NCBI GenBank assembly: GCA_029775955.1
Contig: JARVJW010000087.1
Span: 1-33,747, forward strand
Length of the DNA: 33,747 nt
Origin: Nitrososphaeria archaeon
Lineage (GTDB): Archaea; Thermoproteota; Nitrososphaeria; Conexivisphaerales; UBA164
Reading direction: 5' to 3'
Shown: positions 14,869 through 30,645 of the stretch, piece after piece
Layout: each line of letters begins with the position of its first letter
Position numbering within the stretch: position 1 is the stretch's first letter
The notes under the pieces: generated by a model
The model's input: only the letters and a program-made list of their open reading frames with translations
Database searches by the model: none
What the model was told of the DNA's origin: nothing
Made by a program: the position numbers and the translations under genes

Positions 14869-14935
14869 TATTGACGTAGGCTACAGTTTCAATGTAGATA
14901 AATTTAAATATTGGTAAATATAGAAGTATATCTAA

Positions 14936-16103
14936 AGTGATAATCGCTTATGAAGACAGGCTTGCAAGGTTTGGTATTGAAACTTTAAAGAAAACGTTCA
15001 CAACTTTCGGAACAGAAGTAGTGAACCATGAAGACTCAAGGAGAACTTGTTGAAGACTTAATTACGACAGTTTCTCACTTTGCTGGAAGGCTCTATGGAA
15101 TGAGAAGCCATAGGTATGGGGAGGTTATTGATGGTGTCAAGAAGCTTGTTGGTCAAAGCATCAATGCCACATGACCTTGAGGTAAATGGGCTTATAGAGG
15201 ATTACATGCACAAACTCTATCCTGGATGAGTTATGGAAGAGGAAGGATAAGGCTTTTGGAAAAAGGCTTAGTACCTTGAAGGATGGCCCTATTCCAAGCA
15301 TTACGTGGACTCAGCAATAAAACAGGCTTATTCCGTGCTTAAATCGTGGAGGAAAGGATACATTCGTGGGCGAGCAGGAAGAAATAGGCCTGAACTGAAG
15401 ATCCGTTAGAGTCAATGAAACGCTTTACAGTTACAGGAATAGGATTCAGTGAAACCTTACGAAGAGAGTATAGATTTGAGGAGGGCGTGGTGTTGGGATA
15501 AATGGCTTAGGCGAACTCATACAGCCTAACCGTTAGAAAAAAAACAGGACTAAAGGTTGAAAAACCGATATCATGGGACACAAACCTCCTAGATGGCTAT
15601 GATGGCGAAAGGCATCATTCAATAAATTTGAAGGAAATTTACACTATACACAGAACATATGAGCTGAAGAGAAGAATTATCCAGAGGCTTCCAGAACTAA
15701 AAAGAGGTTCCTTAATACAGTTCAAGGAAGAACAGGGTCAATAGCATTTTGCATAAACTTGCAAAACAATTATCAGATGGGACAAACGTGTTCGAGGATT
15801 TAAGAAACTTCAAGGGAAAAATAGCTAGGACAAAAAGCAGAATAGCAAACACGATTATATAAAGCTCTGTAGAATATAAGTCAGCATTGAATGGGTATGA
15901 GACTGGCTTATGGTACATCAAAAACCTGCTCCAGATGCGGGTATTATAATAAAGGGGGGCAAGCACATTCAAATTGCGGGCTTATAATCGATAGGCAGGA
16001 AAATGCATCAATAAACATAGGAACAAATTCCTTTGTGGGGAGTTATGGGTTCCCCCCGAAAGGAGCCAAGCTCGATGAGTTCTCCGATGAACCCAGAGGA
16101 TGA
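14936..16103 (+). pseudogene. tnpB: tnpB (IS200/IS605 OrfB) pseudogene, copy a
   Basis: Multiple stops and frameshifts. Recognisable pieces are 'HYVDSAIKQAYSVLKSWRKGYIRG', 'IHRTYELKRRIIQRL', 'NSILHKLAKQLSDGTNVFEDLRNFKGK' (RuvC-II E) and 'YGTSKTCSRCGYYNKGG..NCGLIIDRQENASINIG' (Zn finger plus RuvC-III D, ORF 15891-16103). Confidence 0.8.
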
Positions 16104-16128
16104 TAAGAGCGATGAGGCTCAGGGACTG

Positions 16129-16155
16129 AGTATGGATTCCATGTATATCCATACT
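16129..16155 (+). repeat. Perfect 9-bp stem / 9-nt loop hairpin just 3' of dead tnpB copy a (candidate IS right-end hairpin)
   Basis: 'agtatggat' (16129-16137), loop 'tccatgtat', then 'atccatact' (16147-16155). The hairpin starts 25 nt after the tnpB stop. Confidence 0.5.
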
Positions 16156-16251
16156 TAATTCAGAATCCATCATTGAATATATTTTTGTAGTTTCTTGAAA
16201 TTATTGATGTTTTGTTTCATGTTCTATCTATCTGCCCTCAATTGTTGAAGG

Positions 16252-16975
16252 CTACACTAGCAGCTTCGGCGTTTGTCCCAATTCATGTGGAATGCCTGCA
16301 CTGGTTTTTCCAGCCTGTCGAGATCCAATGGCATATGCAGGCCTTCTTTCATTATAGTATGTGATGTACTTCACTGAATAGAAGTGTTTGACCCTGAACT
16401 GTAGAAAGCCTTTCCATTTGATTGAGGACACCCAACCCTTTCCAATATATGCCCAGTTTGACAAGGTATTCCTGGAATTAGGTTATGCCAGGTGCCTTAT
16501 TATCTTTATAGTTTGCGAAAAAACGCAAAATATATCTGTAATTATTGCCCAAGGCTTGCTCCATGTTGCTATTGCTTTATTAAGCATTGTCATTTGTGGC
16601 CTCGTAAAATAGGCCTCGATGCGTCGTGTAGGCTAACCACTTATCCTTTAACCTGTACATCATAATTTATGTAGCGGAGTGCTTTCATATTTTCACCTTT
16701 CTCAGATGCAGCAAGCCCGTTACCTTCGTGCTGTGTATGTGATAACTCTACGTTGTTAGTCATCTGCATGGTAAGGCGCTTACGAACATAAAGTGGTTTC
16801 AGATTTTTCCAATTGTGAAGTCATTTTAGGGCTTCGTGTGCGGGCATTTTGCAAGCGTTCATAAATACTGGCAGTCTAATCCTTGACTGGTCACACCATG
16901 CAATGCTGCCTGTGCCATTATTCCGTCTACCTTTCTTCTGATTATCCAACGTATCTTGGCATCTGTAAGCTTCAT
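16252..16975 (-). pseudogene. rve-type (IS481/IS3-like) integrase-transposase pseudogene
   Basis: The minus strand starts with the HTH-like 'MKLTDAKIRWIIRRKVDG...' (ATG at 16975) and then hits stops. Later fragments are 'PQSNGKAF..' and 'KHFYSVKYITYYNERRPAYAIGSR' (ORF 16252-16464), the conserved C-terminal 'YN..RPH.alg' block of rve integrases. The remnant is too short and too interrupted to be functional. Confidence 0.65.
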
Positions 16976-17037
16976 TGCGGGCCTATGGTAGCAGCGCGTT
17001 AATAATAAAAAGATAAATTGAACATATTTTAGAAATA

Positions 17038-18285: not shown

Positions 18286-20433
18286 TTAAGAAAATTCAGA
18301 TAAGGACAGCTGATTGTCGGATTTAAGCATGCCCTGAAACCTTTCCAGAATCAATTCTACCTCTTCCTTTTCATCGTTTTCGAGTTCCTCAGCAATATTT
18401 CTCAAAGATATTATAATTGCATTAAGCTGTTCTGTGTCAAATTCAGGTGACAGTTCTGAACCGCATTTGGGGCAACGATAACTTATTGGTGGAATCGAAA
18501 AATGTAATCCGCACTTTTGACAAAAGTGAGCCTGATTGTTGTACATTCTCTCCACTGCCATGAGCGTTTTTACCAGGTTAGGAACGGCGGATTTTTTATC
18601 CTTTAATGACAGGATGAGTTGCATGAGCGATTTAGAAAGGTCAACAATATTTTCTGCGGATTGCTTGGCAGGGTAATCAATTCTAATTTTGGGTAGCGTT
18701 TTAAGCAAACCAGCGTCATACACGTTGAGGTATCTTGGCGGAGCGCAATATTTTCCAGAATAATTTAAAACTACATCCTCTTCAAGAGAAATGTATAAGC
18801 TGTTGTTTCTAAGGCCCATGCATAGCGCTCTCATAATGCCAGGATTTACAAGAACTTCGCTACCTATTTCCCTGACCTTTAATCTTATTCCTGCACTTAA
18901 ATCCCTGTTAAGTAAAATGATGTTATGGCCTTTAAGTTGGTCAGGTGAATACTCGTAAAATATCTTCTTCCCACCATATATTTCCTCAATTTCTGCATCA
19001 ATTAACTTTGCTACATCCAACAAAGAAGATGCCAGCCGATGGGGTATTATTATTTCATCTCCATCCAGGTCTGCCGCCTCCACATGAATGGGAAATGCAC
19101 TTATCCCGCACTCTGAAGCCATTATTGATGCACGACGCCTTAAAATAGCCTTCCTTATGTCCTCTATTTCTCCAACTGATTTATCAGGAAAAGCTAGATC
19201 AAGGCGCATGTCTATGTTGAGCTTTTTATTTGCCAACCTTAGCGATTCCGACAGAATTGCGTCATTTTTGGGCATATCGCTGGCAGTGGAACCACAAATG
19301 GGGCATATCTGTGAAACAACAGGTTTGCCGCATTTACTACAAAAGTAAAGCTTTTCTGTCCTTGAGCCGCACTTTTCACATATTTTGAACGGCGTTGCCC
19401 TTTGGCACCTGCTGCAGTACCTGATTGTGACCTCAGAAATCAACTGTCCCCTGACAGGCACTATGCCGTGATACCTGTTTATATCCTTCCCATTGTCATT
19501 TTGTTCTACTATTTCAATTGGACCAATGCTATTATTCAGTACCTTTACACCAACCAGCTTTCCATCAAGCATTGCTTGTAGTATTGGGCCAAAAGATTTG
19601 TCTGTTACAACAATTGATTCATTTTTTGAAGATGCCAGCATGCCTGAATTTATAAGGTATGCGTAAACCACTGGCGATGGTTGAAATTCAAGGTTCCCTT
19701 TACTAAGTTTTAGGATCTCAGGTGGAGGTGGAGGGATTGAGTAGTTTGGATGAAGTGTTCTATTTTTAAGTCCCAAGTTTATCGCTTCGTCAGGCGTATC
19801 AGGTATTTTCCCCTTTATTCTGTACCCAACAATTCTACCAGCCAGTTTTGCAGGAAGAATTATGTTTCCTAAATTTATCAACTGTGACCCCTTTTCACAT
19901 GGATATATATCATAATTTGAACTGCATAGAGGACCCCTCACATCAGGTGAAAAATACAGTCTAAGGCCAACTCCACTAATTTTGATATAATATGAAGTTG
20001 ATTTGAGGTTCATGCGATGCGCTATGTCTGAATTCATAAATGCTGCATCCGCGCTATAATCCATAAATGTCGCCCTTAGCAAGCCTGGCAAGTAAATCCT
20101 GTTTGCAGGCCTAAACGTTGTCTGAAAAGCTGCCGTGGGGTACAACTTACTGATTTTGCCGGCTATGAAATGCAGGGAAGGGCCGAACAATTTTAAAGTT
20201 CTCCTGGAGGCACCCCGTTCACTGAAATATATCTTATTTTCATAGTGGCCCCCAGTTATCTTCTCAAGCTCTTGTGTGAGCCAAACGTTAAGTTCATTTA
20301 TATTCTGCACGTCCTTTATTTCATGATTTCCAATTTCATTTTTTCGCTCATAGAATGATTTGTAGAATGATAAGTTGGGAGCTGGATCAGCCATTGCTTT
20401 TTCACGCATTTTTATAAGTTCATCATACCCCAT
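18286..20433 (-). CDS. PolD large-subunit (DP2)-like Zn-ribbon protein, N-terminally short and apparently lacking the catalytic acidic motif
   Basis: Intact 715-aa ORF with AGGTGA 3 nt before the ATG. It has four tandem CxxC pairs at aa 340-380 (CSRC..CEKC..CSKC..CPIC) and a C-terminal Zn-ribbon at aa 638-657 ('FCQKCGLHFSIPPISYRCPKCG'). The block 'LLDVAKLIDAEIEEIYG...GHNIILLNRDLSAGI' resembles my recollection of Pyrococcus DP2 ('LLKVAKFVDDLLEKFYG...GHLVIGLAPHTSAGI'). The terminal 'QLSLSEFS' is PIP-box-like. Confidence 0.6.
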   Translation of the reverse strand: MGYDELIKMREKAMADPAPNLSFYKSFYERKNEIGNHEIKDVQNINELNVWLTQELEKITGGHYENKIYFSERGASRRTLKLFGPSLHFIAGKISKLYPTAAFQTTFRPANRIYLPGLLRATFMDYSADAAFMNSDIAHRMNLKSTSYYIKISGVGLRLYFSPDVRGPLCSSNYDIYPCEKGSQLINLGNIILPAKLAGRIVGYRIKGKIPDTPDEAINLGLKNRTLHPNYSIPPPPPEILKLSKGNLEFQPSPVVYAYLINSGMLASSKNESIVVTDKSFGPILQAMLDGKLVGVKVLNNSIGPIEIVEQNDNGKDINRYHGIVPVRGQLISEVTIRYCSRCQRATPFKICEKCGSRTEKLYFCSKCGKPVVSQICPICGSTASDMPKNDAILSESLRLANKKLNIDMRLDLAFPDKSVGEIEDIRKAILRRRASIMASECGISAFPIHVEAADLDGDEIIIPHRLASSLLDVAKLIDAEIEEIYGGKKIFYEYSPDQLKGHNIILLNRDLSAGIRLKVREIGSEVLVNPGIMRALCMGLRNNSLYISLEEDVVLNYSGKYCAPPRYLNVYDAGLLKTLPKIRIDYPAKQSAENIVDLSKSLMQLILSLKDKKSAVPNLVKTLMAVERMYNNQAHFCQKCGLHFSIPPISYRCPKCGSELSPEFDTEQLNAIIISLRNIAEELENDEKEEVELILERFQGMLKSDNQLSLSEFS

Positions 20434-20552
20434 GGTTCACCTAATGGGGTTTGGTGTTAAAAAGGCAACGGGAGCTGCTGCGGGTGTTTAAACCGTTGTC
20501 CAACATCTAACATATAGTTATAAACTAGAATCATGAAAAGCTACTGGATAAG

Positions 20553-20560
20553 TTTATTAA
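20553..20560 (+). promoter_or_regulatory. TATA-like box 'tttattaa'
   Basis: Lies 25-32 nt upstream of GTG 20585. The 10-mer 'agtttattaa' is identical to the one at 30041-30050. Confidence 0.35.
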
Positions 20561-20584
20561 CGGCCTGTTGATTTTAAAAGGTTT

Positions 20585-22093
20585 GTGAAATTTAACACTG
20601 TAGTGCTAGATGTAAAGGCTGGAAAGAAATCTATTATAATTAATGAAGATGATGCAAACGAAATTGGGCTTGAGCTCAATGAAAGGGCAAGGCTAATGGT
20701 TGATGACAAAAGCGTGGTGTGCATTACGGAGACGACAAAGACTCTGGTAAAGCGCGGAACTATAGCAATTTATAAGGACATTGCAGAAGCGCTTGAATTG
20801 GAGAATGGTGGATATGTAGATGTGTCCTACGAACCGTCACCAAAGTCAGTTGAAGTCATAAGAAAGAAGATGAGGGGGGAAAAGCTGAGTGAAAACGAGA
20901 TAAATGGCATAATAGGGGATCTGATTTCTAATGAGCTAAGCGACCTGGACATTGCATCATTTCTTTTTTCAGTGCACTATAAGGGCCTGGATATGGAAGA
21001 AATCAGGAACCTCACGCTCGCGATGCTTAACTCTGGTGAAAAGTTGGAACTAAGTGGTTTTGTTGTTGATAAGCATTCAATAGGCGGCGTGCCCGGCAAC
21101 AAGGTTTCCCTGCTCATAATTCCAATTGTAGCATCCACTGACCTCTTTATACCGAAGACCAGCAGCAGGGCCATAACAAGCCCTTCAGGAACAGCCGATA
21201 CAATGTCCGTGCTTGCAAATGTTAAATTTGACCTTAAGGAAATAAAAGAGATAGTAGAGAAGACGCATGGTTGTATTGTTTGGGGCGGTGCCCTTAACCT
21301 GGCCCCGGCAGATGATATTTTGATTCGTGTTGAAAATCCACTGAGGGTGAACCCACGTGGCCTGATGCTGGCAAGCGTAATGTCAAAAAAGCTTGGCGTT
21401 GGCGCCAAAATAGTCGCCCTTGACATGCCATTGGGAAGAGGAACAAAGGTCACGGACATTACAGACGGGGAGAAACTTGCAAGAGACTTTGTAGAGCTTG
21501 GCAGGAGCCTGGGAATCAACGTAAGGGCAGGCCTCACCTATGGAGGGCAACCTGTAGGGAGGGCAATAGGCCCTGCGCTTGAGGCTAGGGAAGCGCTTGC
21601 AGCATTGATCAATCCCGATGCAGCTAGCATGAGCCTTCTGTCAAAGTCAGCCTCACTTGCGGGCATCATTCTGGAAGCATCAGGCATAAGTCAGCAGGGA
21701 CAAGGGTATGACGCAGCCATGGACGTACTTAGGTCCAATAAGGCACTATCAAAGATGAGGGAGATAATTGGAGCGCAGGGCGGAAACCCAGATATAAAGC
21801 CAGATGATCTTCCTGTTGGTACGTACAGGCACCAAGTGGTAGCAGAAAACGACGGCTACGTTACGCTTGTTGACAATGAATCTCTTGTCCAAATAGCTCG
21901 AGCCGCAGGCACGCCAGCAGACAGGGGTGCCGGAATTGTGCTCCACCAAAAGCAGGGATACAAGGTCAGGAAGGGGGATGTGCTATTTGAAATATATGCT
22001 GAAAGAAGTTCAAGGCTTTCTGACGCTGTAAATCTTGCAAGCTACTCGCCACCTATAATGCTTGAGGGAATGCTGCTGAAGTCTTACCCATAG
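20585..22093 (+). CDS. deoA: AMP phosphorylase (archaeal thymidine-phosphorylase family, about 500-aa type with extra N-terminal domain)
   Basis: 502-aa ORF with a GTG start. It has 'DKHSIGGVPGNKVSLLIIPIVAS', 'SSRAITSPSGTADTM' and 'VWGGALNLAPADD', plus an N-terminal beta-domain of about 85 aa preceding the glycosyltransferase fold, as in the archaeal AMP phosphorylases. Confidence 0.85.
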   Translation: MKFNTVVLDVKAGKKSIIINEDDANEIGLELNERARLMVDDKSVVCITETTKTLVKRGTIAIYKDIAEALELENGGYVDVSYEPSPKSVEVIRKKMRGEKLSENEINGIIGDLISNELSDLDIASFLFSVHYKGLDMEEIRNLTLAMLNSGEKLELSGFVVDKHSIGGVPGNKVSLLIIPIVASTDLFIPKTSSRAITSPSGTADTMSVLANVKFDLKEIKEIVEKTHGCIVWGGALNLAPADDILIRVENPLRVNPRGLMLASVMSKKLGVGAKIVALDMPLGRGTKVTDITDGEKLARDFVELGRSLGINVRAGLTYGGQPVGRAIGPALEAREALAALINPDAASMSLLSKSASLAGIILEASGISQQGQGYDAAMDVLRSNKALSKMREIIGAQGGNPDIKPDDLPVGTYRHQVVAENDGYVTLVDNESLVQIARAAGTPADRGAGIVLHQKQGYKVRKGDVLFEIYAERSSRLSDAVNLASYSPPIMLEGMLLKSYP

Positions 22094-23197: not shown

Positions 23198-24262
23198 CTA
23201 ATTTGATATATGTGTGCTCCAGTTGCAAAGTGGATCATTAGCGTAAATTGTGTTAAATGCGTTTAGGGCCCTGGCAGGACACCCACCCTGGCAACTTGCC
23301 CTAAACATGCAGAAAGAGCATGGCTTAAACGTGACAGATTTCCTCTCATTAAGGTCACTGAACCTTTTTTCGATTATGTGTCGCATGTCAATCGATAGTG
23401 CATTTCCAACAGCAATCCCCTTTACCATAAGCAGGTCACAACCGTAAACTTTCCCGTCTGCGCCCACAACTATATAATTTTTTCCTGCTGGGCAAGTGAG
23501 CTTGTTGCCGATGCTGGCTCTGAAAAACTCATCCGGTTTAAGGTAGAACCTGAATCCGTTGGCAGTAATTTTCAAAGGCCCCTTATAGGCAAGCATCTGA
23601 GCAATCGCAACCCTGGCATTCCTATAAGAAAGAGATAAATGGTTTATTTCTGCGTTTCCAAAGCTCTGGACTGCTATAAAGTTCATGCCTCCAGCACCGA
23701 TTTCTTCTGCAAACATCAGCGCTCCGTTAACATCATTAAAATTCCTGTCAGAAACAGTTGTGGAAATATTAATCGGTATTGCAAGCTTTCTGAACTCCCT
23801 TACAGCCTTAATGGCCATCCTAAAACTGCCAGCGCCTCTCAACTCATCGTTTAACATCCAATTAGAAGAATCAAGGCTTACCTGCACGTGTTCAAGGCCT
23901 GATTCTGCCAGTTTTCTGGCAATATTTGATGAACCTGCAAGTCCGTTTGTTGACAACGATGGTGATAATCCAAGTTCACTTGAAAATTTTATAAGTTCAG
24001 GCAGGTGCGGGCTCATAGTTGGCTCTCCACCTAGAAAGTAAATGTACCTGGCGCCTGCTTCATCAAGTTCCCTTATTATATGCTTCCACTGATAAATGCT
24101 TAACTCTCCCCTGCCAGAGCCTGCAGAAACATAGCATGCTGCGCAACGCATATTACATCTGTTTGTCAAATATACTGTTGCGACAAATTCAGATGTCCCT
24201 CCTGAGATGTGAGGCAACGGGTATGCAGGACAATCATATGCAAAAAGATCACTAATATCCAT
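23198..24262 (-). CDS. Radical SAM enzyme with C-terminal SPASM/twitch domain
   Basis: 354-aa ORF with the radical SAM cluster motif 'NRCNMRCAACY' (CxxxCxxC) and 'FLGGEPT'. The C-terminal 'CPAGKNYIVVGADGKVYGC' plus 'CSFCMFRASCQGGC' (Cx2Cx5Cx3C) is the SPASM signature. Confidence 0.85.
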   Translation of the reverse strand: MDISDLFAYDCPAYPLPHISGGTSEFVATVYLTNRCNMRCAACYVSAGSGRGELSIYQWKHIIRELDEAGARYIYFLGGEPTMSPHLPELIKFSSELGLSPSLSTNGLAGSSNIARKLAESGLEHVQVSLDSSNWMLNDELRGAGSFRMAIKAVREFRKLAIPINISTTVSDRNFNDVNGALMFAEEIGAGGMNFIAVQSFGNAEINHLSLSYRNARVAIAQMLAYKGPLKITANGFRFYLKPDEFFRASIGNKLTCPAGKNYIVVGADGKVYGCDLLMVKGIAVGNALSIDMRHIIEKRFSDLNERKSVTFKPCSFCMFRASCQGGCPARALNAFNTIYANDPLCNWSTHISN

Positions 24263-24348
24263 TGCTAACAGCCTGTCTGATTTTTCTGCTTAAACGGTTG
24301 GAATATAGCAACAATTGAATCTTTTTTACTAGGTTTTTGAAATTCCAA

Positions 24349-24459
24349 TCACTCCCTGCTATCAATACGGAATAAATCTTTTGCGAGCCAATTGACAAAT
24401 AGCGCGCTTAATTTATCAATTATAATTGGAATCACGGCAATACCACTAACAATGCCCAT
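24349..24459 (-). CDS. Candidate 36-aa small ORF upstream of the radical SAM/SPASM gene (speculative)
   Basis: It reads MGIVSGIAVIPIIIDKLSALFVNWLAKDLFRIDSRE, on the same strand as the rSAM start and 87 nt upstream of it. 'ttttatattt' (reverse complement of 24484-24493) sits 25-34 nt upstream of its ATG. It was absent from the supplied track because it is shorter than 60 aa. Confidence 0.2.
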   Translation of the reverse strand: MGIVSGIAVIPIIIDKLSALFVNWLAKDLFRIDSRE

Positions 24460-24501
24460 TAATGATTATTATTTAATTGCCCAAATATAAAAGCTCTTTT
24501 G

Positions 24502-25290
24502 CTAATCTAGGGTGTGGGACACTATTATTGCATGGTTACCTATCAAAGTTGAATAGATTATGAACTGGTGCATAGTTTTCAATTCTCTCATCACGCCTCT
24601 GGGCAAACCAGCATCTTCTGCAGCAAAGCGTCGGAATTGCTCCTCTGATGATATTGTTCAAGGTATTTTATTTAGTTACAAACTCTTTCATAATGTCCCA
24701 CTTCTGGGAACCATTTAACATTGAATTTGGAATTATGTACACCTTCCCGCAAACATGTCATGTAGTGCCTGTCATGCCTTGCTGTATCAATGTCAACATG
24801 TCAGCATTGCCCTGTCAAAGACATTCATTTCTGGCTTGAACATGTACATCATTCAGGTCCATTATGGCGAACATGTAGGTAAAGAGCTGCTTTTTTCTTA
24901 TTGACCTTTGCCATACCCTTCTGGGCATAGTTGATGGTCAAGGAGTAGCCTGTGCCGTCACGCATCAGATGTTGTGATTCCCTTCTTACTTAACAGCAGG
25001 ACATGCAGGTTGTGAATAGCTATCATTACCTCAGGGTCAGAGCTTCTCAATTGTCTTGCAGGAAACTTCTTACGTCATTAAAAATATTACCAATATATCC
25101 TGTTTGACCAAGCTGATTAATCAGGAGAAGCTTGACCCATCTTAAAGAGAATGGCCTGCTCTATCTAGATTACGCTGACAGCTCAATGCACCAGAGGTCT
25201 GAGCATTTTCATTGCTTCTCCGCAAAGTCCTCCAATCCCTTTTTTGGATTGCTCAGTTTGCTGATATAATCATTGATTTCTGGATACCGT
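24502..25290 (-). pseudogene. DDE transposase (IS5/ISH-like, with InsH-type N-terminal region) remnant
   Basis: Minus-strand fragments in mixed frames read 'GRPFSLRWVKLLLINQLGQTGYIGNIFNDVRSFLQDN', 'MRDGTGYSLTINYAQKG', 'FAGRCT.FQIQC' (the DDE 'aDkgYds' position) and 'EEQFRRFAAEDAGL...MRELKTMHQFIIYSTL'. Many stops are present. Confidence 0.5.
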
Positions 25291-25631
25291 CGCTGTGCAG
25301 CCTGCTATGTATATAAACTGGGAAGTTCGTCTCTCTATATAGCGAATAACGTTATGTTTTTTTGTTATGGTAAAATACCCTTACAGCTTGATTTTTTTAT
25401 CCTTGCTAAATAATTTTTTCACTTATATTATTGCTATTTATCATATACAATGCATATACTGCGTTCTTTTATAATTTACACGGCGTCATTATTATTTTAC
25501 AAATGCAACTATAAAGAGCCTTTTACTCGCTTTTATCCAAGTGACTTTGTTAAAATATTGATAAAATGTTTTAATGATATGCGGCATACAAAGCTGTACA
25601 TTTAATGATAAAATTCAAAAAAAGCGTTAAT

Positions 25632-26129
25632 TTATGTGTGTTTTGGCTTCCTTAGTTGTGCTATTTCCCAAAGTGAAGTAATAAATAGGAAAATGCCAAA
25701 CCCTAAACTAATTCCGAACAGCATATCATACACGTGATAAGAAACGTAGTAAGGAGTGTGCGATATGAATACAGGAATTATATAAAGGTGATATGTTTCT
25801 AATGCTGGAAAATCATAGGGGTCAATATATTGAAACATAAGGATGAAGGAAAATATGAATAAAATCACTGGCCATATTATGTGCCCCTTGCCTTTCCTAA
25901 GCGATGCATAATCTATCACCGCTACGACGATTATAATTAGGGCAATTATAGAACTGATGCCGACATCGAGGAAATTATATGTATGAGGATAATAGTTGTA
26001 ACTTTCTAACATTGCGATAGGCACTGAAATCAATAAGAGAATGCCTATAATTATGTTTGCAATAGAAAGTGTACGTACAGAAATGTTATGGAGTTCGGGT
26101 TCATAATTATTACTACTGCTCATAGTCAT
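25632..26129 (-). CDS. Hypothetical integral membrane protein (about 5 TM helices), AT-rich ORFan
   Basis: 165-aa ORF with hydrophobic stretches (IANIIIGILLLISVPIAML, ISSIIALIIIVVAVI, IIWPVILFIFSFILMF, LYIIPVFI, ISLGFGIFLFITSLW). It is Tyr-rich, and I recognise no family. It sits in visibly AT-richer DNA than the flanking genes. Confidence 0.55.
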   Translation of the reverse strand: MTMSSSNNYEPELHNISVRTLSIANIIIGILLLISVPIAMLESYNYYPHTYNFLDVGISSIIALIIIVVAVIDYASLRKGKGHIIWPVILFIFSFILMFQYIDPYDFPALETYHLYIIPVFISHTPYYVSYHVYDMLFGISLGFGIFLFITSLWEIAQLRKPKHT

Positions 26130-26479
26130 TCATAATTTATGATAATTATAATATATAAGCTTTTATATTTGTATCAGTACTTCCGCAAGTATAGCATTTC
26201 ACTCTTTTAGAGCAATTCATTTAGGGCATCATTAGCTTATAGATTTTAGAGATGAACAAACCAATGAGGTCCAACAGGAAAAGTTATCCTCTAAAGCCTT
26301 GAATCAGAACTTTGTCGTACCATTTCAAATATACAACAGATAGCATAATAAGATCTCTGAATTACATGTAAGTTAACAATCAACCTTAACTGGCTCAAAA
26401 GCGCAACATTGATGCTCCATCTCCTGATTCTCCGCAGGCTTGGATTATGCTGTAAGAGCATTAACAGACAAAAGCATTA

Positions 26480-27215
26480 TGTTAAAGATGATGGTTATAG
26501 ACTGTACAGAGACATGACAAGATCGACAGAGATGTTACTGGGGGCAAGATAAACACCGACAAACTTTGCCACAATAAGCGCTGTTGGCAAGGATGAAGGC
26601 ATGAGGCTGACGCTCTTCCAGTTACCAGGCTCGATATCAAGGAGAACGTTGTAATTGCTTGAGAATTCACCAAGGCCTTCACCTTTCCTCATGGACAGGG
26701 GGGTTCTTCACCATTGAAGGTTGCTGGAGGGGCTTAAGATAAACTTCATAATTCCAGCAGTGAAGAATGGAAGGGTCATAAGGCATACATAGTGAGCTGC
26801 CTGCTGTAATTGATTACCCCATGGAGGTAGGCTTGGTAATAGCAAAGATGAACTGTAAGAATGATGGCAGGCCGGAGGACAGATATATGGCATTTGTTAC
26901 AAATTTTTGATAGCGCTGAACAGATGATAAGTGCAATCCCTGAGGAGTACAGGTGGGGCAAGGATAATGCATGTAAGATGGGTTTGAGGTCATCAAGCAG
27001 GAATTTCGTTGTAAGGGTTGTTTACTTGCAATAATCTGTACAATGCTTGTACCGAGGGAGCAATCACAGACTGTCACTGCATATAAATTCAGGCGCGCCG
27101 TTGGAAGGCTATAAGGGAGGAAACTAGCCCGTGCGGAGGAACTGCCTCTACTGTGAAGGCGGATAAGCAAGTTTGTTCCTATGACGCAAGAAGCTTAAGC
27201 CGTAGGTAATTCACA
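26480..27215 (+). mobile_element. Internally deleted IS5/ISH-like remnant (copy 2) ending about 65 nt from tRNA-Ser
   Basis: Fragments 'SSYQARYQGERC' (the W..YN..L..RG position) and 'PEEYRWGKDNACKMGLRSSSRNF' (the C-terminal 'Y..Rw.vE..Fs.iKr.fg' position) are present. The 3' tail at 27144-27212 is homologous to 948-1019. The DDE core is missing, leaving only about 500 bp of coding remnant. Confidence 0.55.
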
Positions 27216-27281
27216 TTGACAATTCATTTCCTGTCTTATGCCATGGGACTTGTAAAACCTTTTTGTTACTGGCTGCAAAGG

Positions 27282-27366
27282 CGCCGGGGGTGGGATTTGA
27301 ACCCGCAGGGCTGAGACAGCCACAGGCTCTCAAGGCCTGCCCCATACCAAATTAGGGGACCCCGGC
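27282..27366 (-). tRNA. tRNA-Ser (anticodon UGA), class II with long variable arm
   Basis: 85-nt cloverleaf folded by hand. The acceptor stem is GCCGGGG/CCCCGGC and the D-stem is 3 bp with GG in the loop. The anticodon stem is CAGGC/GCCTG with loop CT-TGA-GA. The variable arm is GGCTG-tct-CAGCC. The T-arm is GCGGG-TTCAAAT-CCCAC, which has one C-A mismatch. The discriminator is G and CCA is not encoded. Confidence 0.85.
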
Positions 27367-28730
27367 TACATCCATTCCTTAAGGTTAGCCCTACTTAAAA
27401 GTTCAGCTGCGAACTTGCCTGATTTTTCATATACTTCATTTTCATCTACAGTTAAAACTTTCCCGCTCTTTTTCAGGAACCTGCCATCAACAATCAGGTC
27501 AGTGCAATCCATACCCGTGCCTGCATAGATAAGGTTGGAAACTGGGGCCACAGGGGGGACAAGATGAGGTGCCCTCAGGTTGAAAATTGCAATGTCTGCC
27601 CTTTTCCCCTTTTCAATTGACCCAGTGAGTTGTTCTATCCCCATAGACCACGCGCCGTTTATTGTAGCGATCTTTATCATGTCAAACACGCTAATTGCCT
27701 GAGGATTCAGGCTGTTTACTTTCTGTAGAAGCAAGGCTAACTTCATCTCCCTTACCAGGTCATAGTCGTCATTGCTTGGTGCACCATCTGTGCCTATCGT
27801 AACATTTACGTTCTTCTCCATCATTCTGGTGATTGGAGCTACGCCAGAACCAAGCTTGCTGTTAGATGATGGGTTGTGTGAAACGCTTGTGCCGCTCTGT
27901 GCAAATATTTCCATGTCATCATCGTTCAACCATACTCCATGTACGTAAACGTAGTTTCTACCAACCATCCCCAAATCTTTTAGAAACTTGCCAGGCGATT
28001 TGCCCCTGCTGGCAAAGTACCTGATGTCGTCCCTTACTTCAGCTAGATGCATTGTTACGCCTGACCTATGCTCCCTCACTGTGTCCGCTATTCTCCTGAA
28101 CAGTTCGTCGCTTACGGCACCCGGCGTTCTGGGCGAAAACCATATCCACACCCTGTTGTCCCTACTATGCCACTTCCTGTACATGTGTTCATAAATTTTG
28201 AAGGATGTTTCAACATCTTCAACCAGCCCCTGGTGCAGTATCTGTGGCTTATCAGCGTAGCCAGGTGTATCCATTACCTGCTTGCCTATAGCTGCCCTCA
28301 TACCGCTCTTGTAAACGTTTTCGATCGTCCTATCTGTGTTATATCTGGCATTTATTGAAGTAGCTATAAACGATGACGTTCCGCTGTTTATCATCTCCAG
28401 AAGTGTCAACTTTGTGCTTATGTCCATTATATCCTCGCTCATGCTGCCCTGCAGTGGCCAGACATAATCTTTAAGCCACTCTATAAGTGCTACATTGTCA
28501 GGCACAAGCCCCCTCAGTATCCCCTGTGCCAAATGCACATGGGTGTTTATAAATCCAGGAAACACGATTTTATTTTTTCCATCAATCACAAACTCCGCCT
28601 TTCCCTGGACTCGTTTGCCCACGTCTACTATTTCTCCGTTTTCTATAAGAACAGAACCGTCCTTTATTATTTCATTTTTACTGTTGGCGGTGACCACAGT
28701 GGAATCCTTTATAAGAATCGTGTCGCTCAT
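27366..28730 (-). CDS. Amidohydrolase of the ATZ/TRZ family (MTA/SAH-deaminase MtaD/DadD-like)
   Basis: 454-aa ORF with metal-binding 'FPGFINTHVHLAQGILRG', then 'EWLKDYVWPLQ', 'HLAEV', 'VHGVWL' and 'TIGTDGAPSNDDYDL'. GGAGGT sits 6 nt upstream of the ATG. Confidence 0.8.
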   Translation of the reverse strand: MSDTILIKDSTVVTANSKNEIIKDGSVLIENGEIVDVGKRVQGKAEFVIDGKNKIVFPGFINTHVHLAQGILRGLVPDNVALIEWLKDYVWPLQGSMSEDIMDISTKLTLLEMINSGTSSFIATSINARYNTDRTIENVYKSGMRAAIGKQVMDTPGYADKPQILHQGLVEDVETSFKIYEHMYRKWHSRDNRVWIWFSPRTPGAVSDELFRRIADTVREHRSGVTMHLAEVRDDIRYFASRGKSPGKFLKDLGMVGRNYVYVHGVWLNDDDMEIFAQSGTSVSHNPSSNSKLGSGVAPITRMMEKNVNVTIGTDGAPSNDDYDLVREMKLALLLQKVNSLNPQAISVFDMIKIATINGAWSMGIEQLTGSIEKGKRADIAIFNLRAPHLVPPVAPVSNLIYAGTGMDCTDLIVDGRFLKKSGKVLTVDENEVYEKSGKFAAELLSRANLKEWM

Positions 28731-28829
28731 ACATTTACCTCCTATGCATCATTTAAAATATTATCGTAGCCGTTTTAGACCAAGGGTTAGAAACAGCCAC
28801 GATGATCTTTATAAGGGGCTATAATATAT

Positions 28830-30002
28830 ATGAAGATAAAGGAAATACTGAAGGTGATAAAGCCATGAGCCATCCATGGAAATCCAGGGGGCAATTGTCG
28901 GGTACTATAAGCCACAGGAGGAAGTACCTCACGGACATGCAGAGCGCGATAAGGTATGCTATTGAAGTTGCCTATGAAATGGCTATACATATTGCAATAG
29001 GATGCCTTTGCCAATTGCATTGAGATCAAGCCACGGTTCGTGTCAAACTACGATTATGCGATTCACAACCTCAACCCCGTTTCTGCCGTTGCCTGATAAT
29101 ATAAGAAGAACCATTATGGCGAGCTGAGGATACCTGATGTGAAGAAGCTTGAAATGAGGATTGATAGCTAGATGTTCAAAGTGACAAAGTGAGGGTAACG
29201 CTCCAGCCCGGGCATTACGCTTACGTCCCAATAAACACTGAGAACAAGCACTTCCTGGAATACGGCAAGGGCAAAACTTCAGAGCTCTTGCTGACTGACA
29301 ATTTTGTGTGTGTTAACCATATCGGAAAAGGAAAGGAGCCTAGCTTCGTGGCGCAGGACTTCACGATAGATTCCACGTTTGCTGGGTGATGGCAGGCTGC
29401 GCTGAAAGGAACTTATACACAGAGCATTTCTAACATAGCGCACATACAGAACGACTCAGGGAGGAGAGCCTGCAGAAGCACAATAAAGAGAAGTACAGGA
29501 AACTGCGCCAGGCCAGAGGTAGGCAGAAGAACCGTGTCAATGATGCCCTGCAAAAGCTAACTACGGAGATGGTAAAGGAAAACCCAGGCGCGTCATTTGT
29601 CTTTGAAGACTTGAACGGAATAAGGACTGGTGGAAACAACAAGGGCAGGAAATTCAGGACAAAGTTGAACAGGTGGCCATACAGGCTTGCTTTACCAAAA
29701 GATGATTGAATACAAGTCCTCATTCAAGACCGTTTATGTGAACCCAAGAGGGACCTCCTCGGAGTGTCCTGTCTGTGGTGATAAGCTGAAGCACCCTGCT
29801 TGGGGGATATCGAAATGCGAAACCTGTGGTGTGGACTACGACAGGGATAGGCTGGCCTCACTTGCCATAACCCTGCGTGGCCTGCGGCTACCCGTTTACC
29901 GTGAGTGCGGATGCCTCTTGGCCTTCTTTGAAGGATGAATACCTGTACACCGGTCATGAGCCTAGTAGGCGGAGCGGGCTTGAAGGTCAACGCTCCAAAT
30001 GA
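28830..30002 (+). pseudogene. tnpB: tnpB (IS200/IS605 OrfB) pseudogene, copy b
   Basis: Frameshifted pieces are 'MKIKEILKVIKP', 'AIRYAIEVAYEM', 'KNRVNDALQKLTTEMVKENPGASFVFEDLNGIR' (RuvC-II) and 'MIEYKSSFKTVYVNPRGTSSECPVCGDKL...CETCGVDYDRDRLASLAI' (Zn finger plus RuvC-III, ORF 29687-29938). It is followed by the hairpin ggttata-agaaat-tataacc (30004-30023). Confidence 0.8.
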
Positions 30003-30042
30003 TGGTTATAAGAAATTATAACCTTTTAGAAACGGGAAATAG

Positions 30043-30050
30043 TTTATTAA
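30043..30050 (+). promoter_or_regulatory. TATA-like box 'tttattaa'
   Basis: Lies 23-30 nt upstream of the ubiX ATG at 30073. Confidence 0.35.
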
Positions 30051-30072
30051 TCATCATGCAACTTTCTGGTTT

Positions 30073-30645
30073 ATGAAATACATTCTGGCAATCACCGGCG
30101 CCAGTGGCATAATATATGGTGTAAGGTTAGTAGAGGAACTTGGAAATATGGGACACGATGTTTACTCTATATTTACCAACGGCGCAAGGGCAACCGCTAA
30201 GTATGAGCTAAGTGATGCTATGGAGAGGATTGGCAGGTCGTCAAAGGCAGTTTTTGGCGAAAATGAACTTGATGCGCCAATGGCTAGCGGCTCAGCTAAG
30301 TTTGACGGCATGGTCGTTGCGCCGTGCAGCATGAAGACTCTGGCCTCAATAGCAAATGGTCTTGAGGAAAACCTTGTTTCACGTGCAGGACTTGTCCAGC
30401 TGAAAGAAAGGAAGCCCCTGATACTGTTGCTTAGGGAGACGCCTCTTTCCACACTGCACATAATTAATATGCTGAAGGCTTCTATCGGGGGTGCTATAAT
30501 AGCTCCAGCTTCCCCCGGCTTCTATGGAGCTCCAAAAACCCTGGATGACCTGATTAACTTCCAGGTAGGAAAGGTGCTTGACCTGCTGGGGATACAGCAC
30601 AACCTGTTCAGAAGGTGGTCAGGCCCTGAAGGCAGTGGGAATTGA
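30073..30645 (+). CDS. ubiX: Flavin prenyltransferase UbiX (prenyl-FMN synthase)
   Basis: 190-aa ORF with 'ILAITGASGIIYGVRLVEEL', 'VVAPCSMKTLASIANG' and 'LLLRETPLS', and a typical UbiX/Pad1 length. Confidence 0.9.
   Translation: MKYILAITGASGIIYGVRLVEELGNMGHDVYSIFTNGARATAKYELSDAMERIGRSSKAVFGENELDAPMASGSAKFDGMVVAPCSMKTLASIANGLEENLVSRAGLVQLKERKPLILLLRETPLSTLHIINMLKASIGGAIIAPASPGFYGAPKTLDDLINFQVGKVLDLLGIQHNLFRRWSGPEGSGN

Follow-up and report, generated by a model that had tools for sequence, protein, structure and literature searches.

A miniaturised and catalytically inactivated DP2 homologue (PolD large subunit) in a Conexivisphaerales archaeon

The window, i.e. the whole stretch of 33,747 nucleotides of archaeal DNA analysed here, harbors on its minus strand an uninterrupted open reading frame of 715 codons plus stop (positions 18286–20433), described as intact in an earlier note made from the sequence alone. 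It encodes a homologue of DP2, the large subunit of PolD, that is miniaturised and catalytically inactivated and is denoted mini-DP2 in the following; all features given below for this gene and its upstream region are likewise read on the minus strand. The product is an exact match to NCBI entry QXY52_01125, a "hypothetical protein" from a Conexivisphaerales archaeon (Nitrososphaeria), and therefore does not originate from a member of the Thermoplasmata as supposed in that note. An intergenic region of 151 bp (20434–20584) is common to the mini-DP2 gene and a divergently oriented AMP-phosphorylase-like gene, the neighbour that had been described at this distance. An SD-like AGGTGA, also recognised previously, is found 3 nt upstream of the ATG (20437–20442), and two candidate TATA-like boxes, TTTAAA (20487–20492) and TTTATAA (20518–20524), are predicted as promoter elements; all three were read from the sequence. 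The divergent gene pair is kept in orthologues as far as 29% identity, and the synteny check proposed earlier depicts a conserved surrounding, in which the constant neighbours are metabolic, namely the AMP-phosphorylase-like gene and mdh. The same locus also contains genuine IS debris.

None of the family members examined has a DP1-like, PCNA, PolB or other replication gene closer than approximately 10 kb, and the genomic context thus provides no functional support. DP1 was found neither by tblastn of the window and 29 related loci with the canonical DP1 from the Cdc6-DP1-DP2 operon of locus L024 nor by Pfam scans of the flanking ORFs in the window and related loci, and the gene tables of loci L030 and L031 are without a DP1 domain. 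A 469-aa protein encoded near the mini-DP2 gene in locus L001, which has no Pfam match, is not DP1-like. Past both ends of the window, the sister assemblies contain Topo IB and no replication polymerase genes. A mobile or defence origin of mini-DP2 was rejected because neither PHROGs (phage) nor PADLOC (defence) yielded a meaningful match.

The 715-aa product is a true homologue of DP2, with a similarity well past chance. It is matched by the NCBIfam model PRK04023 (E = 5.6e-20), aligns to DP2 in hhalign with a probability of 98.2% (E = 2.8e-14), and is matched by the DP2 chains of the PDB in three collinear pieces (phmmer/hmmsearch, E = 1e-9 to 2e-20; best hmmsearch value 2.3e-20). At the same time it scores below the NCBIfam equivalog cut-offs (70.6 vs 1,269 bits for PRK04023 and 32 vs 702 for TIGR00354) and below the Pfam gathering scores of PF24844 and PF24846 (19.7 and 19.2 vs 24.3). 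The AlphaFold2 model reaches a pLDDT of 86.7 and a pTM of 0.83, and is biased towards the DP2 fold since canonical DP2 sequences were contained in the underlying 60-sequence alignment; an earlier model from 7 close orthologues alone (pLDDT 41.7) was discarded in its favor. In a Foldseek search with this model the top eight matches are all PolD DP2 (E = 1.7e-31 to 6e-20), the best being P. abyssi DP2 (E = 1.7e-31, TMq 0.54).

In comparison with canonical DP2 (P. abyssi; PDB codes 6hms, 6t8h, 9f2a) mini-DP2 is homologous over its whole length and displays the same order of modules, namely DPBB-1, central domain, Zn-I/Zn-II, DPBB-2, Zn-III/helical CTD and a terminal PIP-like motif. The architecture with two double-psi-barrel scaffolds, three zinc modules and a C-terminal helical domain is therefore kept, while about 40% of the canonical length (approximately 1,100–1,270 aa vs 715 aa) is gone by absence of the N-terminal domain and by trimming of the central, clamp and accessory regions. 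A short helical region (aa 1–104, 20122–20433, model pLDDT 56–88) stands in for the canonical N-terminal domain of approximately 300 aa (PF03833, PolC_DP2_N). This domain gives no Pfam match in mini-DP2 even at E <= 1, and the alignment is gapped opposite canonical residues 1 to approximately 300, in accordance with the missing N-terminal region already pointed out. The following DPBB-1-equivalent β-rich region (aa 105–200, 19834–20121) was delineated by alignment; its strands (E112–194) are modelled with a pLDDT of 87–95, and local Foldseek matches to RNAP barrels are observed. The earlier note had identified SGVGLRLYFSPDVRG (aa 153–167) as the barrel motif of this region. The canonical element GGFRLRYGRSR aligns instead to aa 116–127, PGLLRATFMDYS, and residues 151–167 align to the b-motif strand K..ERPGKA...EGP.

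The central domain, likewise placed by alignment (aa 201–330, 19444–19833, pLDDT 90–97), is reduced and retains the canonical element DEA..L.....LHPNY. It is followed by the tandem modules Zn-I and Zn-II (aa 331–390, 19264–19443), which align to residues 697–760 of P. abyssi DP2 and contain the cysteine pairs C340/343, C352/355, C365/368 and C377/380. Six of these eight cysteines are invariant in 15 short and canonical sequences, and for C355 and C380 the conservation is 90% or more. The DPBB-2-equivalent region, the former catalytic domain (aa 456–600, 18634–19068, pLDDT 80–96), was assigned by hhalign and by a HMMER match to P. abyssi DP2 864–1001; the block for which a match to Pyrococcus DP2 had been suggested earlier is confirmed, with aa 455–520 aligning to P. 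abyssi residues 864–938. The C-terminal domain (aa 601–715, 18289–18633) aligns to P. abyssi DP2 1104–1146 and consists of Zn-III (C638, C641, C654 and C657, 18463–18522) and a helical bundle. The last of these cysteines is located 58 aa from the C-terminus, so that the Zn-ribbon layout of four mid-protein CxxC pairs and one near-terminal ribbon is as previously described. All 12 zinc cysteines are invariant within the short family, and nearly all are kept in canonical DP2 too. The zinc modules look like the zinc ribbons of Nop10, RpoP and TFIIE (cf. PMC7544198). In canonical DP2 the CTD is the DP1-binding module (PMC4996933, PMC7544198). That of mini-DP2 is homologous to the CTD of Pol epsilon by local Foldseek matches to 5vbn_B, 7pfo_B and 6hv8_A, with E = 7e-3 and an rmsd of 3.3 Å over 94 columns for the CTD/B-subunit complex 5vbn_B.

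As judged from the aligned sequences, all three active-site motifs of PolD have been lost, a loss that was overlooked in the earlier note. The acidic a-motif of the second barrel, canonically [ND]-C-D-G-D-E-D, has degenerated to GLRNNSL (aa 540–546, 18796–18816), the segment RR[ND]CDGDED being changed to CMGLRNNSL. R542 and N544 stand where P. abyssi DP2 has D956 and D958, the catalytic aspartate pair (Sauguet et al. 2016, PMC4996933), and no family member carries Asp at these positions. The basic b-motif of DPBB-1 (K-x-x-R-x-x-K, canonically K-x-E-R-P-G-K) is reduced to KISGVG (aa 151–156, 19966–19983). In the alignment of LK.ERPGK with IKIS--GVG the dispensable first lysine alone survives, and mini-DP2 is without counterparts of R395 and K398 (9°N numbering), the latter being the essential lysine at the primer 3'-end in 9°N PolD (Zatopek et al. 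2020, PMC7708050). The s-motif, which confers nucleotide selectivity and reads GLAPHTS canonically, has become LLNRDLS (aa 507–513, 18895–18915), with Pro, His and Thr replaced by Arg, Asp and Leu (APHT to NRDL); PHT is invariant across all PolDs and its histidine acts as steric gate (Zatopek et al. 2020, PMC7708050). The three motifs are disrupted in every member of the family, and no substitute acidic cluster is conserved throughout its wider membership. With all three motifs destroyed, a conventional two-barrel polymerase is ruled out.

At the very C-terminus, at the position of the PIP box of canonical DP2, a PIP-box-like segment QLSLSEFS of the type Q-x-x-L-x-x-F is found (aa 708–715, 18289–18312), where serine takes the second place of the aromatic pair in the PIP consensus. 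Within the family Q708, L711 and F714 do not vary, and over 60 DP2 sequences L711 is conserved to at least 90%. A terminus of the form Qxx[LIMV]xx[FYW] is kept in 24 of 27 inactivated DP2 forms vs 21 of 33 active ones. Because of this invariant motif the PCNA-associated accessory role contemplated in the earlier note appears plausible, and the retention of motif and domain suggests that mini-DP2 may bind PCNA as well as DP1.

The gene is under purifying selection. In the seven full-length orthologues, which comprise 712–722 aa at 58–76% identity, the frame is intact throughout, and dN/dS amounts to 0.12–0.15 overall and also in unsaturated pairs (dS 0.30–0.45). MAGs carrying the gene are GCA_038876515.1, GCA_038878015.1, GCA_038883315.1, GCA_029776015.1, GCA_053486515.1 and GCA_029784635.1. 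Regional values lie between 0.08 and 0.26 in six of seven regions, the outlier being a short region with 0.38 at very low dS, and the barrels are constrained to the same degree as the CTD. The earlier description as a maintained gene is borne out by these data. The length is conserved as far out as 29–33% identity, and the wider membership of inactivated short DP2 forms falls into classes of 715, 685–705 and 829–837 aa, the distant short forms having been obtained by exact cluster look-up and missed by the alignment-based homologue search. Two proteins of 725 aa (P0161 and P0162) have intact catalytic motifs and were excluded from the family. A relative is encoded in Thaumarchaeota archaeon UBA164 (locus L016; 33% identity over residues 42–714, E = 2e-98). 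This homologue, P0012, matches the family profile with E = 3.7e-108, groups with the family in a neighbor-joining tree and is devoid of the same active-site motifs.

The relative from UBA164 connects the family to published work, in which the Nitrososphaeria group around GCA_002499005/UBA164 was reported to be without an active DP2 and to possess a DP1 that is inactivated (Kazlauskas et al. 2020, PMC7544198). There, the MAGs UBA160 and UBA164 are considered, with NAY82641 as DP2 homologue and NAY82623 as DP1; the inactive DP2 appears in the supplementary alignment only, and conclusions are called "premature". Mini-DP2 belongs to the same family as UBA164/NAY82641; it is distantly related (33% identity) and comes from a Conexivisphaerales MAG. 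Miniaturisation, retained PIP motif and CTD, selection, structure and wider membership of the inactive DP2 are not part of that study. Hence, of the earlier statement that no short DP2-like family had been described, one part stands, as the miniature family itself was never characterised or recognised, and the other does not, as the inactive state was glimpsed in the 2020 supplement.

Since the family includes the UBA164 homologue and the group is reported to be without active DP2, mini-DP2 is probably the sole, degenerate DP2 orthologue and not a paralogue as proposed in the earlier note, a reading that relies on the literature for a relative of 33% identity. Every residue for DNA synthesis is lost and nevertheless the gene is preserved; its product is therefore probably still a component of the replication machinery, without taking part in catalysis. 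Specifically, we consider it rather likely that mini-DP2 is a catalytically dead DP2 orthologue retained as a scaffold of the replisome that binds PCNA and DP1. DNA synthesis in this thermoacidophilic Nitrososphaeria lineage would then have been taken over by a family B polymerase, comparable to Crenarchaeota and Nitrosocaldus (Nitrosocaldus cavascurensis is without both PolD subunits), and selection would maintain the non-catalytic function of DP2. Mini-DP2 would dock on PCNA via its PIP-like motif and pair through the Zn-III/helical CTD with a DP1-like small subunit, itself inactivated in the group according to the literature. The outcome would be a "pseudo-PolD", a structural or organising module of a replisome or repair complex.

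Such an arrangement would be analogous to eukaryotic Pol epsilon, whose C-terminal half is essential and catalytically dead and is paired with the inactivated DP1 homologue Dpb2. In both cases a dead polymerase module is retained with a Zn-containing CTD, which binds, or in mini-DP2 would bind, an inactivated DP1-type subunit, and a role of mini-DP2 as replisome scaffold is putative; the dead module of Pol epsilon, however, is of family B (palm-fold) origin, whereas mini-DP2 derives from the two-barrel DP2. A further parallel is provided by inactivated archaeal PolB2/PolB3-type polymerases, conserved homologues that persist although their catalytic motifs are disrupted, in the account of Rogozin et al. 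2008 given in PMC7281927. These belong to the palm/RRM polymerases, an unrelated fold and family as compared to the double-psi barrel of mini-DP2.

Alternatively, mini-DP2 could be a true paralogue, acting as an additional PCNA-associated accessory or regulatory factor next to a canonical active DP1-DP2 pair in the same genome. The retained PIP-like motif would suit this reading, as would the position of the gene, which adjoins neither DP1 nor Cdc6, in contrast to the classical operon seen in L024. It is nonetheless unlikely, given that the family contains the UBA164 homologue and the sole published study of that group describes an inactivated DP1 and the lack of an active DP2, and that no second DP2-like gene is present in any of the related loci examined. 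Among the organism-labelled canonical DP2 matches, a minority of all matches, the closest stem from DPANN (Woesearchaeota) or Bathyarchaeia and not from the Conexivisphaerales lineage; as candidates for the lineage's own DP2 they are uninformative.

It is also improbable that the DP2 scaffold has been repurposed outside replication, e.g. as a Zn-ribbon factor that binds nucleic acids during repair, transcription or RNA metabolism and no longer partners with DP1 or PCNA. The conserved pairing with genes of nucleotide and central metabolism in place of replication genes, the resemblance of the zinc modules to Nop10, RpoP and TFIIE, and the constraint on the barrels, which suggests that these are still functional, are consistent with such a shift. 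Archaeal replication genes are often dispersed, however, so that missing linkage is weak evidence, and the CTD and terminal PIP-like motif, interaction modules specific to a polymerase holoenzyme, are conserved at least as well as the rest of the protein.

A non-canonical two-barrel polymerase, as suggested in the earlier note, or another enzyme with a new active site is very unlikely. Both barrel scaffolds are kept under purifying selection and an acidic segment SLEED (E551, E552, D553) directly follows the former catalytic loop, but D553 is a structural aspartate of all DP2s, and E551 and E552 are not conserved in P0012, P0013 and P0014 (ALSAD, ALSED and ALLAD). Moreover, the former catalytic loop is variable within the family (LRNNSL, LRNIGF, PKSNMI), unlike an active site, and the a-, b- and s-motifs were lost jointly. 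A decaying, functionless relic, as might be suspected from the missing catalytic residues, the large deletions and the real IS debris in the locus, is effectively refuted by the selection analysis, with intact frames in all orthologues, low dN/dS even at dS 0.30–0.45 and a length conserved to 29–33% identity.

PolD is taken to be the ancestral replicase of archaea, and its CTD together with DP1 is thought to have been passed to the eukaryotic replicative polymerases after replacement of the catalytic part. Against this background the replisome-scaffold reading may tentatively be extended to the non-ammonia-oxidising thermoacidophilic Nitrososphaeria in general, where PolB would replicate the genome and a pseudo-PolD of dead mini-DP2 and dead DP1, bound to PCNA, might be an indispensable organiser of the replisome. 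If this were true, pseudo-PolD would represent an archaeal, two-barrel-derived counterpart of the C-terminal half of Pol epsilon with Dpb2, and thus possibly an archaeal parallel to its essential non-catalytic role. It would furthermore offer a living intermediate in which the structural role of a replicase has outlasted its chemistry, as has been proposed for one step in the emergence of eukaryotic replicases. If the lineage indeed maintains such a strongly conserved yet chemically inert and reduced DP2, as it appears to do, the protein would serve as a natural "minimal DP2", revealing which parts are important apart from catalysis, and as a test case inside Thermoproteota for the replacement of a PolD by a PolB replicase. 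At present, members of the family carry annotations such as "hypothetical", "zinc ribbon", "Nop10" and "rubrerythrin", and genome surveys therefore count these organisms as being without DP2.

The ORF at 18286-20433 on the minus strand is uninterrupted and encodes 715 aa, as the earlier note had stated, and the SD-like AGGTGA noted there lies 3 nt upstream of the ATG. The product is identical to the NCBI entry 'hypothetical protein QXY52_01125 [Conexivisphaerales archaeon]', found on 26 contigs, which replaces the formerly presumed Thermoplasmata host by the Conexivisphaerales MAG of which the window is one complete 33,747-bp contig.

Similarity to DP2, the large subunit of archaeal PolD, extends beyond generic Zn-ribbons. 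A Pfam search yielded DP2 matches below threshold only, and the NCBIfam DP2 equivalog models matched with E = 5.6e-20 (70.6 bits, cut-off 1,269 bits). Against PDB sequences, phmmer and family-profile searches retrieved PolD DP2 chains exclusively (E = 1e-9 to 2e-20) in three collinear pieces, namely aa 332-449, 451-528 and 630-662, corresponding to P. abyssi residues 697-826, 864-938 and 1114-1146. The profile and structural comparisons proposed in the earlier note recover the same relationship. Alignment of the family with canonical DP2 by hhalign gave a probability of 98.2% (E = 2.8e-14). An AlphaFold2 model built from the seven orthologues alone had a pLDDT of 41.7, and a 60-sequence alignment including distant relatives gave a pLDDT of 86.7 and a pTM of 0.83, the latter model being biased towards the DP2 fold because its input contained canonical DP2 sequences. 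Its eight best Foldseek matches in the PDB are PolD DP2 (E = 1.7e-31 to 6e-20, TMq ≤ 0.54), followed by weak local matches to RNA polymerase double-psi barrels and to the Pol epsilon CTD/B-subunit complex 5vbn_B (94 columns, rmsd 3.3 Å).

Aligned with canonical DP2, the protein retains the first barrel region (DPBB-1, aa ~105-200), a portion of the central domain in which the 'DEA...LHPNY' element lies, the Zn-I and Zn-II modules, the second barrel region (DPBB-2, aa ~456-600), Zn-III and the C-terminal helical bundle. The N-terminal domain of ~300 aa is absent, as had been recognized. Further losses comprise ~160 aa separating DPBB-1 from Zn-I, ~37-45 aa that follow the 'DGT.R.D' element, and a portion of the accessory region. 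The barrel motif previously placed at aa 153-167 has to be shifted: canonical 'GGFRLRYGRSR' pairs with aa 116-127 (PGLLRATFMDYS), and aa 151-167 pair with the strand bearing the basic motif.

The exhaustive profile search, covering 1.84 billion representative proteins, returned 173 hits. Close relatives are few and confined to Nitrososphaeria (Nitrososphaerota) MAGs from hot-spring or acid-mine sites, with lengths of 712-722 aa, 685-705 aa (P0012, P0013) and 829-837 aa (P0014, P0212), and are annotated as 'hypothetical', 'zinc ribbon', 'rubrerythrin' or 'Nop10'. A GTDB genome scan located seven family loci, among them L016 of 'Thaumarchaeota archaeon UBA164', whose protein is 33% identical over residues 42-714. 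The inactive state of the UBA164-lineage homologue, visible in a supplementary alignment of Kazlauskas et al. 2020 (PMC7544198), is mentioned nowhere else in the literature searched. The family has thus been glimpsed yet is uncharacterised, and the earlier belief that no short DP2-like family was known holds in part: the miniaturisation, joint loss of three motifs, purifying selection, retained PIP motif and CTD, and family extent appear to be undescribed. The protein had been called a paralogue, which is improbable: literature on UBA160 and UBA164, a group reported to have an inactivated DP1 and no active DP2, favours a sole orthologue, as we infer for the window genome, and nothing in the loci examined pointed to an additional DP2 gene.

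Twelve metagenomic full-length DP2 homologues (~1,000-1,150 aa; P0015, P0020, P0021, P0026, P0029, P0031, P0035, P0036, P0044, P0048, P0054, P0059) have also jointly lost the a-, b- and s-motifs; most carry a C-terminal PIP-like motif and at least one bears the annotation 'DNA polymerase II large subunit'. Dead DP2s may have a wider distribution than the three groups the literature names. A second short inactivated class (P0017, P0022, P0068; cluster of 46; 701-757 aa; 'Nitrososphaeria archaeon' MAGs) has its catalytic loop entirely deleted and is annotated by JGI as 'rRNA maturation protein Nop10'. Outside the family, P0161 (L023 10001-12178) and P0162 are 725-aa DP2s with intact catalytic motifs lacking the N-terminal ~400 aa. 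P0161, whose gene adjoins an intein-containing MCM gene, may represent an active DP2 that is split or truncated, and an unannotated 339-aa gene upstream could encode its missing N-terminal part.

Of the three published active-site motifs, the acidic a-motif provides the catalytic D956 and D958 of P. abyssi DP2 (PMC4996933), the basic b-motif comprises K392/R395/K398 with K398 essential, and the PolD-specific s-motif GLAPHT contains the invariant PHT with His as steric gate (PMC7708050). All three are lost in the window protein and every orthologue; in the window protein RR[ND]CDGDED is replaced by CMGLRNNSL, K.ERPGK by KIS--GVG and APHT by NRDL. The putative interaction modules are retained. 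The CxxC pairs reported earlier (four at aa 340-380, two at aa 638-657) are real and invariant across the family, with 12/12 Zn-ligand cysteines conserved. The CTD, in DP2 the DP1-binding module and homologous to eukaryotic replicase CTDs (PMC4996933, PMC7544198), is kept and confidently modelled by AlphaFold2. The protein ends in QLSLSEFS, eight residues with a Q-x-x-L-x-x-F pattern located where canonical DP2 has its C-terminal PIP box, and Q708, L711 and F714 are invariant; a C-terminal Qxx[LIMV]xx[FYW] occurs in 24/27 inactivated DP2-like proteins versus 21/33 active ones. The window protein is a catalytically dead, reduced DP2, held under selection, in which the Zn modules, the CTD and a PIP-like tail are preserved.

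The invariant tail is compatible with the PCNA-associated accessory role suggested earlier, and the protein may dock on PCNA. [quoted passage not shown] Repurposing outside replication is unlikely. No DP1, PCNA, PolB, MCM or Cdc6 gene was found within ~10 kb of family genes in the loci examined, in contrast to the classical Cdc6-DP1-DP2 operon at the canonical locus L024, so that context argues neither for nor against a replisome role. Still less probable is a new active site. The formerly catalytic loop differs between family members (LRNNSL, LRNIGF, PKSNMI), and the more distant P0012, P0013 and P0014 show no conserved replacement acidic cluster in the alignment; with the three motifs gone, the protein, judged by its residues, cannot be a conventional two-barrel polymerase, and the non-canonical variant once proposed loses its footing. 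That the gene is a relic is highly improbable, as the reading frame is full-length in seven orthologues (712-722 aa, 58-76% identity) and overall dN/dS is 0.12-0.15 (Nei-Gojobori), including unsaturated pairs at dS 0.30-0.45. Regional values are 0.08-0.26 in 6/7 regions, among which are the CTD and the two barrels, the one outlier of 0.38 falling in a short linker region with very low dS. The gene is maintained, as first surmised, and not decaying.

The previously named neighbours were found in place: malate dehydrogenase (mdh) follows 48 bp downstream, also on the minus strand, and a divergent AMP-phosphorylase-like gene of the thymidine phosphorylase family (20585-22093, plus strand) lies 151 bp upstream. 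Downstream mdh is conserved among closer orthologues, and the head-to-head AMP-phosphorylase-like gene persists even beside DP2-like orthologues of only 29% identity (L015 8410-9990, L027 8326-9840), implying a long-conserved shared promoter region.

At 14900-17000 a frame-broken IS605-type TnpB remnant, with fragments including 'GTSKTCSRCGY...IDRQENASINI', separates isocitrate dehydrogenase and AsnC-type regulator genes. These are nearly adjacent in the orthologous loci L001-L006 and L009, hence the TnpB remnant stems from an insertion specific to this lineage that later decayed. Transposase debris occupies both contig ends (373-819 and 32984-33421; a DDE transposase fragment and a 145-aa OrfB_IS605 fragment), and since the breaks in sister assemblies fall at comparable positions, fragmentation of these MAG assemblies is probably due to IS elements. 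A tRNA-Ser(UGA) gene (27280-27366, minus strand) directly abuts the start of an amidohydrolase gene (27366-28730, minus strand), whose true start codon may lie further downstream than annotated. The stretches 24262-25632, 26129-27280 and 28730-30073 are devoid of ORFs ≥120 aa and may hold more pseudogenes or small genes.
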